A stretch of 64,000 nucleotides of DNA. Origin: Candidatus Latescibacterota bacterium (GTDB lineage: Bacteria > Latescibacterota > UBA2968 > SICM01). The position numbers and the translations under genes are program-made. Under the pieces are notes generated by a model. The model worked only from the letters and a program-made list of their open reading frames with translations. It searched no databases and was not told where the DNA came from. The stretch is taken from the NCBI GenBank assembly GCA_965217865.1, contig CBDCJO010000002.1, forward strand, positions 4,512,001 to 4,576,000. Direction: 5' to 3'. Every line of letters starts with the position of its first letter. Position 1 is the first letter of the stretch. This document shows, one piece after another, positions 55,531 through 61,028 of this stretch.

Positions 55531-56460
55531 ATGGTAAAGGAATTTCATCCCGACACACAAAAGAAATGTGAGTTTTGTGGTGAGGTTATTCCAAAGGTAC
55601 GTTCGATGTCCGTCCGGGACGTGCGCACCTGTGTAAAATGCCAGAAAAAGCTGGAGAAAAACCCATGGGAACTGAAGGATCCGAATCATAGGGAGGTTCA
55701 AAAGCAACAAGATGACGCGGACTTACCCAATTCCTTAGAGCTGCAAGACGATCATGTGAAGGTGGGGGGGTGGTCAAACAGCCTCCTGGAAATGACCTCA
55801 AGGGGGGTCGAACTCAGAACACTTATGGATTCAGGTAAAGTGCGGGACGCGCGCACTTTCGTTCAGCACTTAACTGTTCCGGCGCAAGCTGCACTGGTTT
55901 CTCTGGATCAAAATCCCGAGGAGGTCCTTTCTGTCACCGGAATGACAGATTCAGAACTACCGGCCTACTGTCCGCAGGTTGTGGATTTACTCCCGACGGA
56001 GCTTTTGGCGGACCTGGTTGCCCCCCACACAGAGTACCTGAGGTTCAACATAGAAGTCCTAAAGGCGATGTCACCCAAAACTTTTCGGCGGGTAATGCTG
56101 GAGACCCTGGATCCAATCGATAACCTGGAATATCGCGCCCAAGTGTCCTGGGAGTGGTTAGAGGCATTGGTGGCGATCGATGATCCTAATAAGATCGCAG
56201 AGCTTGTGGGGGACGTCGAAGTGGAGTTGCTTGAAGATGCCATCATTACTCGTTTTGAATATCTTGATATGCACCAAATCGTTGGGGGGGATGTCCCGCT
56301 TTTCCGTATCTTTTCGGAATCCGGAAATTTATCTGTCGATCCAGGGGACTTTTTTAAAGAGCCAAAAACAGCTAAAGTGATCAAAGCCCTTCACGAAGCG
56401 GTACCGGATCTTTTGAACGAAGTCGTACGAGGGGCTTGGGAACGTGCAGGAGAGGTTTAG
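55531..56460 (+). CDS. Hypothetical protein with an N-terminal DksA/TraR-type C4 zinc finger
   Basis: CEFCGEVIPKVR..RTCVKCQ; AGGAGG RBS. Confidence 0.7.
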   Translation: MVKEFHPDTQKKCEFCGEVIPKVRSMSVRDVRTCVKCQKKLEKNPWELKDPNHREVQKQQDDADLPNSLELQDDHVKVGGWSNSLLEMTSRGVELRTLMDSGKVRDARTFVQHLTVPAQAALVSLDQNPEEVLSVTGMTDSELPAYCPQVVDLLPTELLADLVAPHTEYLRFNIEVLKAMSPKTFRRVMLETLDPIDNLEYRAQVSWEWLEALVAIDDPNKIAELVGDVEVELLEDAIITRFEYLDMHQIVGGDVPLFRIFSESGNLSVDPGDFFKEPKTAKVIKALHEAVPDLLNEVVRGAWERAGEV

Positions 56461-58478
56461 GATGGTATGCCGTTAATCGGCACCTGGCTGGGGTGTTTTT
56501 TGAAGAAGTCCTTTCGAGGCTCAAGGACTTTAAGACGATGCTCTGCGGGGTTCTCCATAAAAGCATATATGGGTTCAAAAATGCGATCCCAACTCCAGAA
56601 CTCCTCTCCGAGCCTCATATACTCACGAACCATTTCAGTCCCTTCGGGGACGACCGGATGCATAAGAACCGTAGCCACCCGGACCATATGGAAAGCGTCG
56701 ATCAAGGATCGTCTCCGTAAGGCGGAGTCACAATCGTCATTATATGGCTTTCGTGCGCTCCACCGATGATTGATTTCTCTTATATATGCGCCAGCTATGG
56801 TTATAGCCTGGTGAAACTCATGTTTATACATGGCTTCTTCAAATTCCAGAATCGTTGTTTTCGCTTGCGATAAGATTTCATCACTAATTTCGCCTACCGG
56901 CACTTTTCCATCAAAGAATTTCTGAGCCGTGTAAAAGCAGGATCGAACAGCACGATTGAAAGCGTTGCTTAAAAGATTCCCTTCTTTTAAGACAGGGTCG
57001 CTCTCCTTTTCCCCCGCGTTCGGGTTCAATGGTCTTGGACGAAAACTCATGCTTCGCATTCCGAGTCCCAGACTCAGGAAATGAGCCCTCAGTTGATCCA
57101 CTGTATAGAAGTTGAGGAGGTCTCTTGCCATAGGCGGTTTTAATGCACCGCTGCTGCTGGCTTTTTTGTCGAGGAAAAGAAGGTGTCGATTGGCGACGAG
57201 GTGCGGGATTTGAATTTGGCCCTCGGGAGGGTCTATGGCCGGATGTTTCCCCTGCATTCCTATGAACATTGCAGCCTCGGGGAGGCTATAAAAAAAGACA
57301 TTGTCTTCTCCGATAAACTGGTAAACCTTTGAGTTTTTTGAGCACCACCAATCCCTCCAGTCTTTCTTATTCCCCCCTTGATGTTCTAAATATGCCGCGG
57401 TAAATGGTATTGGCGCCCAGAGCGATTCCGGCCATACCCAGAAAGTCAATCCGGCAAGTCCTTCCAATTCCGGAGCTGGTAAACCCCATTCCAGATTCCC
57501 GGTGAGCCGAAAGGGCACGAGTGTTTTGCCTGTTCGGTACATCACGGAATGCTCGCTTAAAATCGATCTCGCTTTTTCCTTATCTTCGAGGCGGTTAAAA
57601 ACCAATCGAACCGACCTGGCTCTTCCTTCCACCCGGTTGTGGGTGGGGAGTTGATGAACGACCGAGTTCAATGTCTCCACTTGATCTCGTGTCACGTGGA
57701 TAATGGGCGGCTCAAAGTGTTCCTGTATATTTCTGATGATGAAATCCCGCCATTCTCCGAATTCTCTCAAACTATTCAACCATGATTCCAATAGGGTCCG
57801 AAACTCCGGAAGTCTCAGATACCAGTTCGTAACTCCTCGCGTGTGCGGTCTGTCCCCCGTAAGGGTGCTTTTGGGGTCGATAAGGTCTTCCGGTTCGAAT
57901 TGGTGGCCCAGAGAACATTCATCGGCATAAGCCTTTTCAGATCGACATCCTTCTATCGGACAGAGGCCTTGCACTTGACGACCGGTCAAAAACGTTTTCG
58001 CTTTAATATCATAGAACTGAGGCGTGGTTCGCTTTTCCAAATGCCCATTGGCGTGGAGGGTTTCAATCAATAAGGCCCCGAACTCTCGATGAATATCCGC
58101 GAAACGATCGAAACCGGAGGCCGCAAAAAGATTTAAACTGACGTTGTACGCTTCCAGTGTTTCGGTTTGACGCTTGTGGTTGGATCGAACAAAGTCTTCG
58201 AGGCTCCCTTCAAATTCGCCCTGAGCGGTCAACTCCCGGTGTTCTTCGACGATGGGGGAACCGTAACAATCAGTGCCCGAAATAAAAATGACGTTCTCCC
58301 CCCCGATGCGATCACGGAGAAATCTGGCAAATGCGTCGGCGTGCACAAACAGGCCGCCGATGTGTCCAAAATGAAGGTCCTTGTTCCCATAAGGCATCCC
58401 GCAGGTGACAATTGCCCGCTCTGGAAAATTTGGCCTCCCCCGATCTCGAATATCTGACCTTTCTTTTTTTTCCTTCAT
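56457..58478 (-). CDS. Divergent methionyl-tRNA-synthetase-fold class I ligase, specificity uncertain
   Basis: MPYGN..HFGH (HIGH), GTDCYG, Zn knuckle CPIEGC..DECSLGH, WG.P.P, WVW, KASSS (KMSKS), helical anticodon domain; AAGGAG RBS. Confidence 0.85.
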   Translation of the reverse strand: MKEKKERSDIRDRGRPNFPERAIVTCGMPYGNKDLHFGHIGGLFVHADAFARFLRDRIGGENVIFISGTDCYGSPIVEEHRELTAQGEFEGSLEDFVRSNHKRQTETLEAYNVSLNLFAASGFDRFADIHREFGALLIETLHANGHLEKRTTPQFYDIKAKTFLTGRQVQGLCPIEGCRSEKAYADECSLGHQFEPEDLIDPKSTLTGDRPHTRGVTNWYLRLPEFRTLLESWLNSLREFGEWRDFIIRNIQEHFEPPIIHVTRDQVETLNSVVHQLPTHNRVEGRARSVRLVFNRLEDKEKARSILSEHSVMYRTGKTLVPFRLTGNLEWGLPAPELEGLAGLTFWVWPESLWAPIPFTAAYLEHQGGNKKDWRDWWCSKNSKVYQFIGEDNVFFYSLPEAAMFIGMQGKHPAIDPPEGQIQIPHLVANRHLLFLDKKASSSGALKPPMARDLLNFYTVDQLRAHFLSLGLGMRSMSFRPRPLNPNAGEKESDPVLKEGNLLSNAFNRAVRSCFYTAQKFFDGKVPVGEISDEILSQAKTTILEFEEAMYKHEFHQAITIAGAYIREINHRWSARKPYNDDCDSALRRRSLIDAFHMVRVATVLMHPVVPEGTEMVREYMRLGEEFWSWDRIFEPIYAFMENPAEHRLKVLEPRKDFFKKHPSQVPINGIPS

Positions 58479-58522
58479 AAATATCACTCTCCTTAAATCA
58501 AGCTCTCTTCCACTGTGTTTAG

Positions 58523-58564
58523 AAAAACAAAAAACCCGCTGCAGAGTGGAAGTCCACAGCGGGT
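58523..58564 (-). terminator. Attenuator terminator upstream of the MetRS-like gene
   Basis: Minus strand acccgctg..cagcgggt plus U-tract; 5' arm pairs with leader segment 58612-58622. Confidence 0.85.
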
Positions 58565-58600
58565 CGATGTTCGAATTGTTGATTAAATTATATCAAATTA

Positions 58601-58738
58601 TCATAAAATCTCCCGCCACGGAATCCCTTTTTGGACCTGTTGCTGCTGGAACTGGATACCTTCAAAGAACACCCCAGGTATCCATTTGGTTAACATTGCG
58701 CTTTCAGGAATCGATGATCCGTAGCGGTGAACCGACAT
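58601..58738 (-). CDS. Gln-rich leader peptide
   Basis: MSVHRYGSSIPESAMLTKWIPGVFFEGIQFQQQQVQKGIPWREIL* (alternative ATG 58696); 6 Gln in 8 codons. Confidence 0.72.
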   Translation of the reverse strand: MSVHRYGSSIPESAMLTKWIPGVFFEGIQFQQQQVQKGIPWREIL

Positions 58739-58786
58739 TTGGTCTATCTCGTCATCTGATTTAAATGGTTTTTCTACTCTGATCCT

Positions 58787-58815
58787 ACTTTAGGCGTTTT
58801 TAACTGTTATGTCAA
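58787..58815 (-). promoter_or_regulatory. Sigma70-type promoter for the leader and synthetase
   Basis: TTGACA-17-TAAAGT on the minus strand. Confidence 0.7.
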
Positions 58816-59155
58816 GGGATTTTACAAGGTAGAGTATAAAAAAGGGGCACCGTCGCTCACACAACGGCAATGATTATCTGACGTCATATCTCAGTCTTGG
58901 CGGGAATACGTTGAGAGAGGAATAAGAAGGTAACCCGGAGGAGCGTCCCAAGGAGACTTCCGAAGGAAGCGAAGCGACTGAAGGGCAGACACGGTGTGAA
59001 GATTCGGGGTATCATCATTGATGACGCAAAATTCGGTATGTTTCAGTCGTGACCGGAAAGCTGATGTAAGCCCATTTGCAGTGCAAGAACCCAAAGGGGT
59101 GAATGTGGTGATCAAAGCTTTGTTGTTACACGCAGTTTTGGGGTTGTCGCCTCTC

Positions 59156-59936
59156 TCAGATTTCCACGCGTTTCTCAAACAGCCAGAGCCCGGCAAAGAG
59201 AAGAACCGTAGACGCCAGGAACGGGTAAGCCAGATGAGACAGCTGCATCACACCTTTCATGGACCCTTCTGCCCAAAAACCCACCGTGTTGTATCTGCCC
59301 AGGAAGCTCAGGGAATCGACAGCGGTTGTGTAAGATCGGGCATAAAGGTAAATCATACCGCCAAAGAATGTAAGCGCCGCCAATCCCTGAAACCGACGCA
59401 CAGAAAATTTGAGCCCCTCCATCGCCGTAACCAGGGCCAGCAGAAGCATCATATACAACAGAAACGGCACAACGAAAACAACGCATAGATCGATCAGAAA
59501 GCCAGAGATCTGGCCAAAGGAAGCCGTGGACAACTCGGGGTTTAGTTTCGTCAATTTGCCTTCTTTCATCAAGAGCAGCACCATACTCCCGGCAGCAATC
59601 ATCCACAGAATGAATCCATTGATCAGTGCTACGGCGTATTTGCAAATCACGGTCACCCAGCGGTTAACGGGTAGCGAAAACCAGAGATAGTGTGTTTCTG
59701 ACTTGAACTCCGAAGAAAATGACCGTGCCAGCAGAAACGGTGGAACGATAACGCAGGCTACAAAACCCAATACAAAAGGCAGGACAACCCATCCTCCACC
59801 ACTTGCCCCGGCCAATTCGGGATCAAAAAGATACCACCCTATAGATCTGGAGCGCCACGAGCGCGATCACCAGAAAGGCCAGCAGGTAGGCGCTGTCCTT
59901 CCACTCCTTAACATAAAGTGCGACCCAGGTTTTCAT
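59156..59936 (-). pseudogene. ABC permease (YtrC-like), frameshift near 59840
   Basis: MKTWVALYVKEWK.. then, in another frame, YLWFSLPVNRWVTVICK..LWLFEKRVEI. Confidence 0.65.
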
Positions 59937-59961
59937 ATCCATACCCTCCGCCTACGGCCCA

Positions 59962-60654
59962 TCAATAAGCAACGGTTTCAAAAATCTCTTCCAGTGACTT
60001 ACCCTGTTCCTCGCGCACCTGATCCATATTTCCCGAAAGCGCGATCTCTCCGGCCTTCATAAACACCAAATCTTCGATAAACGCTTCGATTTCGGTTACC
60101 AGATGCGACGTCAGAAACATCGTCTGAGCGTCAAACCGAAACTCATTAAACAGCCCCTGGAGTATTCTTCGCCGTGACGGCGGATCGATTCCGGCAAACG
60201 GCTCGTCCATCAGCACCAGATCGCTCGACCAGGAGAAGGCAGCAACCACTTTCAGCCGCCCTTGTTGCCCGCGTGAAAGCGTGCCGATTTTCTGATCTTC
60301 GGGCAAATTCATGAACTTCAGCAATTCACGAGACTTATCCATATCCCATCCTGGATAGAACGCCGACAGAAACTCGAGCTGTTCCACCCCCCCCATCCAC
60401 TTGTAAAACGGATCTACCTCAGGCAAAAAAGCCACACGGCGCCGGGTTTCAACCCCAACGGGCTGCCCGTCCAGCAAAACGGTGCCCTTGCTCGGACGCG
60501 TAACGCCTGCAAGAATGCGAAACAGCGTGCTCTTCCCGCAGCCATTCTCACCCAAAATGCCCAACACGCGCCCCGTTTCCGCCCTCAACGAGATATCGCG
60601 CAATGCCCAGGTTCCGGGATATCGCTTCCACAGATCGCGAATTTCGACTTTCAT
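59962..60654 (-). CDS. ABC transporter ATP-binding protein (YtrB-like)
   Basis: GENGCGKST, LSRGQ, MDEP, TSH. Confidence 0.92.
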   Translation of the reverse strand: MKVEIRDLWKRYPGTWALRDISLRAETGRVLGILGENGCGKSTLFRILAGVTRPSKGTVLLDGQPVGVETRRRVAFLPEVDPFYKWMGGVEQLEFLSAFYPGWDMDKSRELLKFMNLPEDQKIGTLSRGQQGRLKVVAAFSWSSDLVLMDEPFAGIDPPSRRRILQGLFNEFRFDAQTMFLTSHLVTEIEAFIEDLVFMKAGEIALSGNMDQVREEQGKSLEEIFETVAY

Positions 60655-61028
60655 GACAGCACCCCCTTGATCTCGTCGAGTATGCGCGCTACCTGATGCG
60701 CGTTCAACCCCAATTCCTGGATCTCGGTCACAAAACTTTCCACCGCAGCCTCTGCCAACCCCTCCCGCTCGGTTTCGACGCGCTCAGGCGTTTCGGTCAC
60801 AAACGAACCCTGCCCGCGTCGGGTAAACACAAACCCCTCGCGCTCCAGTTCCGAGTAAGCCCGTGCAATCGTGTTGGGATTGACCCCCATCTGCAAGGCC
60901 ATCTCCCGAACCGAGGGCAATTTCTCCCCTGGCGGATACCTCCCACGCACGGTGCGCTTCTTGATCTCCGCGATGATTTGAAGGTAAATCGGCCGATTTG
61001 GATCAAATTCAAAAGTCTGCACGGCCAT
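60651..61028 (-). CDS. GntR family regulator (YtrA subfamily)
   Basis: PIYLQI, LPSVRE, VNPNTIARAY, RRGQGSFV; 125 aa. Confidence 0.93.
   Translation of the reverse strand: MAVQTFEFDPNRPIYLQIIAEIKKRTVRGRYPPGEKLPSVREMALQMGVNPNTIARAYSELEREGFVFTRRGQGSFVTETPERVETEREGLAEAAVESFVTEIQELGLNAHQVARILDEIKGVLS

Follow-up and report, generated by a model that had tools for sequence, protein, structure and literature searches.

A predicted glutamine-codon attenuator upstream of a methionyl-tRNA synthetase-fold enzyme that may serve as a glutaminyl-tRNA synthetase

Introduction

Why would a bacterium place the gene of a methionyl-tRNA synthetase (MetRS)-like protein behind a leader rich in glutamine codons? 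The question is raised by a 64,000-nucleotide stretch of DNA from a Candidatus Latescibacterota bacterium (assembly GCA_965217865.1, contig CBDCJO010000002.1, positions 4,512,001 to 4,576,000), hereafter called the window, in which the gene for the synthetase-like protein P0001 is preceded by a short upstream open reading frame (uORF) containing a run of Gln codons. A preliminary description had proposed that shortage of Gln-tRNA induces this gene through ribosome-mediated attenuation, and that its product may be a MetRS-fold enzyme repurposed for charging tRNA-Gln. Gln-tRNA is otherwise made by glutaminyl-tRNA synthetase (GlnRS), or by glutamyl-tRNA synthetase (GluRS) together with an amidotransferase. 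Combining analyses of the leader, the protein, its homologs and their host genomes, we find that the leader is real and suggest that it is very probably a Gln-codon attenuator, and that the MetRS-fold enzyme probably works as a GlnRS.

Results

The leader of the synthetase gene

All leader elements and the synthetase gene are read on the minus strand of the window, and the promoter, uORF, Gln run, antiterminator, terminator and ribosome-binding site each lie where the preliminary description had placed them:

58787..58815, minus strand: sigma-70-type promoter-like site, TTGACA-17-TAAAGT, 10 of 12 matches
58601..58738, minus strand: predicted leader peptide uORF of 45 amino acids
58631..58654, minus strand: Gln control codons 29-36, CAG TTC CAG CAG CAA CAG GTC CAA (QFQQQQVQ)
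58612..58622, minus strand: antiterminator strand, 11 bp (3 G-U) with the 5' arm of the terminator
58523..58565, minus strand: intrinsic terminator, 13-bp stem (58565-58533) and U tract
58489..58494, minus strand: ribosome-binding site AAGGAG of the synthetase gene, read from the sequence
56457..58478, minus strand: MetRS-fold class I synthetase P0001, 673 amino acids, predicted glutaminyl-tRNA synthetase, ATG at 58478

Clustered control codons are found in a uORF between promoter and gene, as in known leader attenuators, and the folding models predict mutually exclusive antiterminator and terminator structures, with the position of the ribosome deciding between them. Met is restricted to codons 1 and 15 of the uORF, which bears out the earlier remark that it holds no Met run. 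A census of 5,972 short open reading frames (ORFs) lying at most 450 nt upstream of long ORFs in the window's own genome found six that reach four Gln in eight codons and none that reaches five; the window uORF alone reaches six, for which the binomial chance is ~1e-6 per ORF. Rfam gave no relevant family for the window leader, with two chance matches only and no T-box (RF00230) match.

For folding, we modelled the transcript from ~13 nt beyond the stalled ribosome, which is the footprint of a ribosome, up to the terminator loop. A stall at any position of the Gln run lets 58622-58612 pair with the 5' arm of the terminator (-25 to -17 kcal/mol); a ribosome at the uORF stop leaves no competitor and the terminator forms. 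At equilibrium, folding of the full transcript lets the terminator win in all cases, and the switch must therefore be kinetic. This stall-versus-stop behaviour was obtained in three leaders, namely that of the window and those of the homolog loci L116 and L047. The antiterminator duplex of the window was equalled by 6 of 200 dinucleotide shuffles, i.e. it is modestly unusual, and the folding energy of the whole leader is unremarkable (z -1.39).

A search of the window's genome for the terminator arm pattern returned two sites, the window leader itself and the leader of the shorter of its canonical metG genes (L001; ~478 amino acids, with HVGF where HIGH is usual and without a C-terminal domain, passing TIGR00398). 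This sister attenuator (G000:C2:4202528-4202336, minus strand) carries a uORF with M-G-M-S-M at the place matching the Gln run and folds by the same logic. In this organism, then, one leader design carries Met codons for the true MetRS and Gln codons for P0001. The terminator arm sequence is also found in the L116 leader. A genome-wide scan for terminator plus uORF with a ribosome-site filter, which overlooked the metG sister leader, gave 15 candidates and no other clear cognate run. The sequence examined ahead of the Leu-, Val-, Cys- and Ile-type synthetases, the main metG and glnS held no uORF with cognate codons; for gltX, the examined part ended before the true start of the gene. The same genome has a tRNA-Gln(CUG) gene directly after gltX (G000:C1:333979-334052) and encodes tRNA-Sec.

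Comparison of the leader with relatives rests on few loci because the gene occurs in only 4 of the 168 genomes of the window's phylum, the window genome included. In a ~87%-identical contig from a public run, seven indels are among the listed differences, all outside the uORF, and amino-acid changes fall in its first half. Positions 58587-58675 are free of changes among the differences listed (9 of the 48 lie outside that list), and the Gln run is likely kept. At 58542, a U-G pair of the terminator stem has become U-A. A contig from a more distant relative aligns to 58807-58832 and to the Gln-run region, the spacing between the two being nearly the same.

Leaders of homologous genes

In the homolog search, 5,232 of 7,996 candidates scored E up to 1e-20, a threshold that may admit ordinary MetRSs; the best 120 are 59-92% identical. 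The start motif caught 68 loci; 64 of them, counting near-duplicates and two copies of the window locus, extend 450 nt or more upstream. The preliminary description had looked to such leaders for Gln-rich uORFs or Gln-specific T-boxes, and both were found. T-boxes with a readable specifier are present in 12 of the 64 leaders, and all 12 specify Gln (11 CAG, 1 CAA). Following the specifier rule of TBDB (the second to fourth bases before the specifier bulge ends), Gln is the preferred reading; other frames give differing amino acids for the CAG and CAA variants, so that Gln is the sole amino acid common to both in any frame. The T-box bulge is UGGC in nine of the 12, pairing with G73, which is present in every tRNA-Gln examined, and UGGU in the other three (CAG T-boxes at L185:3555-3811, L186:3559-3814 and L187:622-877). 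Gln T-boxes are among the rarest in TBDB.

Gln-run uORFs occur in five of the 64 leaders. Two of these are the window locus; two further leaders are distinct, one (L047/L048) with an NQQQF uORF, a terminator and an unrelated hairpin that none of 200 shuffles matched, the other (L116) with a VQQQP uORF, a terminator and a hairpin related to that of the window. A Met-run uORF was found in none of the 64. All seven T-box host genomes tested have GlnRS, as does the window genome. This distribution agrees with an enzyme that is an inducible spare in genomes with GlnRS and the sole, unregulated one in the others, G342, which has a Gln uORF yet lacks GlnRS, being the exception. Two T-box hosts (G064 and G062; loci L169 and L171) carry, besides the main metG, a second MetRS-family gene of the archaeal/E. 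coli type with a KISTS motif, so that there are three MetRS-fold genes per genome.

The synthetase protein and its family

A Pfam scan of P0001 gave PF09334 as the sole match, and no match to PF00749, PF03950 or TIGR00440 was seen, so that it is not a canonical GlnRS by domain. Against the NCBIfam metG models, all of its scores lie below the cut-offs (233.8/587, 179.7/336.35 and 51.7/598). The structure model is of good quality (predicted local distance difference test 89, predicted template modelling (TM) score 0.90), and its 15 best structural matches in Foldseek are all MetRSs (TM 0.64-0.70, ~20% identity), followed at rank 16 by PyrN-C (TM 0.60). A quick tree separated 28 family members from eight canonical MetRSs across a very long branch (support 100). 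In an Atlas search, every cluster obtained was labelled either 'class I tRNA ligase' or MetRS, and some homologs are named methionyl-tRNA synthetase in their source records.

Residues were counted over 178 aligned rows, near-duplicates included, with numbering taken from alignments to PDB structures; in E. coli MetRS we take His301 and Trp305 to line the Met pocket and Trp461 to read the anticodon. The family keeps the HIGH-type His pair (His36, His39), Asp70, Trp349, Asp392 and the zinc-knuckle Cys residues. The His301 position is Tyr in all 178 rows, the Trp305 position is Glu or Gln in 177 and the Leu13 position is Met in 177; Arg or Lys stands at 397 or 401 in none. A polar pocket that has no Arg at these positions would accommodate an amide more readily than either a thioether or a carboxylate. 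The equivalents of Asn391 and Arg395 in the anticodon domain are kept in 177 of the 178 rows and a Trp near the Trp461 position is found in none; loss of this C34-reading Trp would suit an enzyme taking both CUG and UUG anticodons. Asn393 was dropped as a pocket change, P. abyssi MetRS and PyrN having Asn393 too. By pocket and cut-off, then, the enzyme is not a MetRS, and by fold it is not a GlnRS.

Gene content of host genomes

Across 29 host genomes, canonical MetRS is present in every one (one partial), GlnRS in five and GatB in 17; the set counts G087, whose locus L036 holds only a C-terminal fragment of the gene. The enzyme is consequently not the only MetRS-type protein of its genomes, a point on which the preliminary description had staked its reading; the window genome itself has two canonical MetRSs. 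Twelve of the 29 have neither GlnRS nor GatB, mostly assemblies of unknown completeness.

We then drew evenly 201 genomes from the class of G070, a Fannyhessea vaginae isolate (class Coriobacteriia), with a completeness filter of 90. The gene occurs in 99 of them and GlnRS in 72, never together. Eleven genomes have no GatB, of which ten carry the gene and one GlnRS; the gene is thus present in all ten that have neither GlnRS nor GatB, and GatB in all 30 that have neither the gene nor GlnRS. Two genomes that are each essentially one contig (G243 and G165), as well as the isolate G070, possess GluRS, AsnRS and the gene and have neither GlnRS nor GatB. A second sample, comprising 151 genomes of the order to which G080 belongs (uncultured Clostridia), has the gene in seven of 11 genomes that lack GlnRS versus three of 140 that have it, and these three carry CAG T-boxes. 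Five of the 11 also lack GatB, and four of those carry the gene. With both samples pooled, 14 of the 15 genomes that have neither known route (GlnRS, GatB) contain the gene.

The absence of glnS had been put forward as a check on the proposed role; it does not hold in the window genome, where GlnRS, GluRS and GatA/GatB are all present, but it holds in every gene-carrying genome of the class sample.

Directly upstream of gltX, the gene was found in six loci (L023, L024, L035, L058, L063 and L070), several from close kin. In L041, a short gltX-like 5' remnant (1404-1502; E 2e-5 in a pairwise comparison) separates ispDF from the family gene; the arrangement looks as though the family gene had replaced a gltX copy at that site. 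In L017 (5029-6919), a methyltransferase and an mnmA-type tRNA thiouridylase are encoded after the family gene in the same orientation; enzymes of the latter type modify U34 of tRNA-Gln, -Glu and -Lys. Three class members that have neither GlnRS nor the family gene (G097, G091 and G100; L089-L091) have a second long ORF of the GlxRS family, possibly a GluRS2. Alkaliphilus serpentinus, with GlnRS and GatB present, has the C-terminal fragment mentioned above (L036:3001-3153), which was not counted as a family member since only that part remains; L038 and L071 were likewise left out as ordinary MetRS-type matches.

Two candidate route tests were uninformative. Arg358 is regarded as a discrimination residue of GluRS, and its column is Arg in 24 of 24 aligned GluRSs, controls with GatB only included; the acceptor end of tRNA-Gln has G73 and U1-A72 in all groups (A1-U72 in one).

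Neighbours of the window locus

Upstream of the leader, 59156-61028 (minus strand) holds an operon resembling a GntR regulator, an ATP-binding cassette (ABC) ATPase and an ABC-2 permease, of which the permease matches PF13346 and the other two were named by sight. A 309-residue ORF (55531-56460, plus strand) converges with the synthetase gene, their stop codons overlapping, and has a weak DksA/TraR zinc-finger match under the cut-off.

Discussion

Proposed mechanism

When Gln-tRNA is short, the ribosome would stall at codons 29-36, keeping 58622-58612 available to pair with the 5' arm of the terminator before its 3' arm has been transcribed, which would allow read-through; a ribosome that reaches the uORF stop would cover 58622-58612, and the terminator would form. 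On these folding models, the attenuator is likely to switch the gene on at Gln-tRNA shortage. The MetRS-fold enzyme would then attach glutamine directly to tRNA-Gln. Judging from the comparative data, genomes without GlnRS and GatCAB would have no other candidate for making Gln-tRNA, and alongside GlnRS the enzyme would act as an inducible spare; the latter applies to the window genome, which has both GlnRS and GatCAB. More generally, a widespread, unannotated family of MetRS-descended synthetases is likely to be a GlnRS and a third route to Gln-tRNA, acting as the sole one in Coriobacteriia of gut and vagina and in Clostridia with small genomes that lack both GlnRS and GatCAB, and elsewhere as a spare under Gln T-boxes or attenuators. 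The repurposed route suggested in the preliminary description is supported by homolog leaders and gene content, from which charging is inferred, but in the window's own genome it would be an inducible spare and not the main route.

Several observations weigh against this reading. At the leader, the promoter-like site is by itself within chance (three such sites in 1.5 kb versus 1.7 +/- 1.3 in shuffles), the ribosome-binding site of the uORF appears weak, and the antiterminator pairing is within shuffle range for L116 (48/200) and the metG leader (33/200). No sensor was detectable by the motifs used in 47 of the 64 homolog leaders, and three T-boxes carry UGGU instead of UGGC, a wobble with G73 that TBDB permits. 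In the protein, KMSKS is degraded to KASSS with loss of the second Lys. The window genome already has GlnRS, GluRS and GatAB, and of the 99 gene-carrying class genomes, 89 keep GatB and so do not strictly need the gene. The 99/72 split follows lineage; its Fisher values are overstated because kin are not independent, and since lineages in general are not independent, the counts reflect few evolutionary events, not hundreds. In G535, which passed the 90% completeness filter, the gene, GlnRS and GatB are all unseen; this genome of many contigs shows that assembly gaps can produce such a state, which here is either a gap or yet another route. Neither the Arg358 column of GluRS nor the acceptor identity of tRNA-Gln separates the routes.

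Alternative explanations

The enzyme could serve tRNA-Gln and load another amino acid, either Met, as emergency mistranslation, or Glu, in the manner of GluRS2, the attached Glu then being amidated by GatCAB or an unknown amidotransferase. Gln-tRNA sensors fit this equally well, and it is favoured by the retention of GatB in most gene-carrying class genomes, the frequent position beside gltX and the gltX-like remnant in L041; the side chains of Met and Gln are also similar in length. However, the 14 gene-carrying genomes that have neither GlnRS nor GatB still need Gln-tRNA, and the Met-binding positions His301 and Trp305 are replaced in essentially all rows. Loading of Glu is further opposed by the pocket: in PyrN, which binds Glu, Arg425 occupies the His301-equivalent, and the family has no Arg or Lys at 397 or 401. 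We consider loading of Met or Glu unlikely.

Direct glutaminylation could also be correct and the uORF untranslated or without control of termination, i.e. a relic or a coincidence. The weak ribosome-binding site of the uORF and two close homolog loci that have no such leader (L040 and L117) speak for it, but the Gln run is unique among the short ORFs of the census, the same arrangement is found again in L116, in L047 and in the sister leader with Met codons, and in the ~87%-identical relative the frame is intact and the hairpin stronger. A uORF of this kind, without function, appears quite improbable to us.

A third possibility is a MetRS-like amino acid ligase outside translation, akin to the hydrazine-synthetase domains of PyrN and Spb40, that would consume Gln in making a metabolite or a component of the cell wall and would be induced by Gln status. 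MetRS-fold domains are known to have switched to Glu, Gly, Ser, Ala, Tyr, Asp or Asn and to non-tRNA acceptors, PyrN-C follows directly after the MetRSs in the Foldseek ranking, and the KMSKS loop is degraded. On the other hand, no cupin or N-hydroxylase was found among the 57 neighbour ORFs scanned from selected loci, the anticodon-domain Asn/Arg pair is kept, and a fixed single copy in genomes of 0.8-1.6 Mb and the exclusion with GlnRS look like housekeeping; induction at Gln-tRNA shortage also better suits a maker of Gln-tRNA than a consumer of Gln. Such a ligase is therefore very unlikely in our view.

Finally, a divergent spare MetRS that is still Met-specific, e.g. inhibitor-resistant, with a leader sensing Gln as a proxy of nitrogen, would agree with the best sequence and fold matches being MetRSs, with the naming of some homologs and with retention of Trp349 (E. 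coli Trp253) and Asp70 (Asp52), but it is highly improbable given scores far under every metG cut-off, a single clade on a very long branch, the constant presence of canonical MetRS, a true spare metG in the window's genome that uses Met codons, and an exclusion with GlnRS that it leaves unexplained.

Significance

If P0001 and its relatives are indeed glutaminyl-tRNA synthetases, they would represent a synthetase for a standard amino acid that is not orthologous to the established one. Such findings are rare, the class I and class II LysRSs being a comparable case. They would explain genomes that seem unable to translate Gln codons, correct many annotations as 'methionyl-tRNA synthetase' or 'class I tRNA ligase', and offer a natural case in which a single scaffold was re-specified for both amino acid and anticodon, of value to studies of synthetase evolution and to genetic-code engineering. 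With its Gln leader and its Met leader, the window genome provides a ready-made controlled experiment. The attenuator itself would be a new member of a known leader-peptide type.

Comparison with known systems

Ribosome-mediated attenuators are known from E. coli trpL, hisL and pheM-pheST. The window leader shares with them a uORF of control codons, alternative antiterminator and terminator pairing and an intrinsic terminator before the gene, and, as with pheST, the governed gene encodes a synthetase. It differs in its Gln codons, in its long leader of 45 amino acids and in a two-helix switch that has no clear separate 1:2 pause hairpin.

P0001 resembles MetRS (P. abyssi 1RQG, E. coli 1QQT/1F4L; PF09334) in its Rossmann core, zinc knuckle and helix-bundle anticodon domain, and keeps the equivalents of Asp52, Trp253, Asp296, Asn391 and Arg395. 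Unlike MetRS, it falls under all metG cut-offs, carries His301 to Tyr, Trp305 to Glu/Gln and Leu13 to Met replacements, has WPESLWAP for W-x-D/E-A-P-I-G-Y and KASSS for KMSKS, has lost Trp461, contains a ~60-residue insertion after the knuckle and lacks the C-terminal tRNA-binding domain; where leaders of its family carry a recognisable signal, it is for Gln instead of Met.

With GlnRS (TIGR00440) and the indirect route, in which ND-GluRS or GluRS2 acts together with GatCAB, it would share the predicted product, Gln-tRNA-Gln. Like glnS in G062, the gene adjoins gltX, and its distribution is exclusive with GlnRS in one class; its scaffold, however, is of the MetRS and not of the Glx type, and it is found in genomes with one GluRS, no GlnRS and no GatCAB, unlike the known routes. 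In the accessible parts of two surveys such genomes do not figure: Dasgupta and Basu 2014 (PMC3927822) sorted 366 genomes into five groups, none without both GlnRS and GatCAB, and in Wels 2008 (PMC2494555) every species without GlnRS had an amidotransferase. The literature searched, with most subscription papers and supplements outside its coverage, held no description of a MetRS-like GlnRS family.

Retuning of a MetRS scaffold to another amino acid, with an altered KMSKS loop, is shared with PyrN-C (PDB 9L8V/9VQ4) and Spb40/Tri28. According to work on hydrazine synthetases (10.1101/2025.08.22.671884), this scaffold can change its amino acid, and PyrN binds Glu with Arg425 at the His301-equivalent and a G-x-D-N-x-x-x-R spacing. 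P0001 has weak sequence similarity to PyrN-C (E ~1e-12), no Arg at the Arg425 position and a family with tRNA-sensing leaders; the MetRS-like domains of hydrazine synthetases, unlike the P0001 family, act on hydroxylamines, have a cupin partner and lie in biosynthetic clusters.

The closest regulatory counterpart is the Gln class of T-box (RF00230), which clostridial homologs use with a CAG or CAA specifier. The window leader has no T-box and appears to reach the same Gln signal through ribosome stalling.

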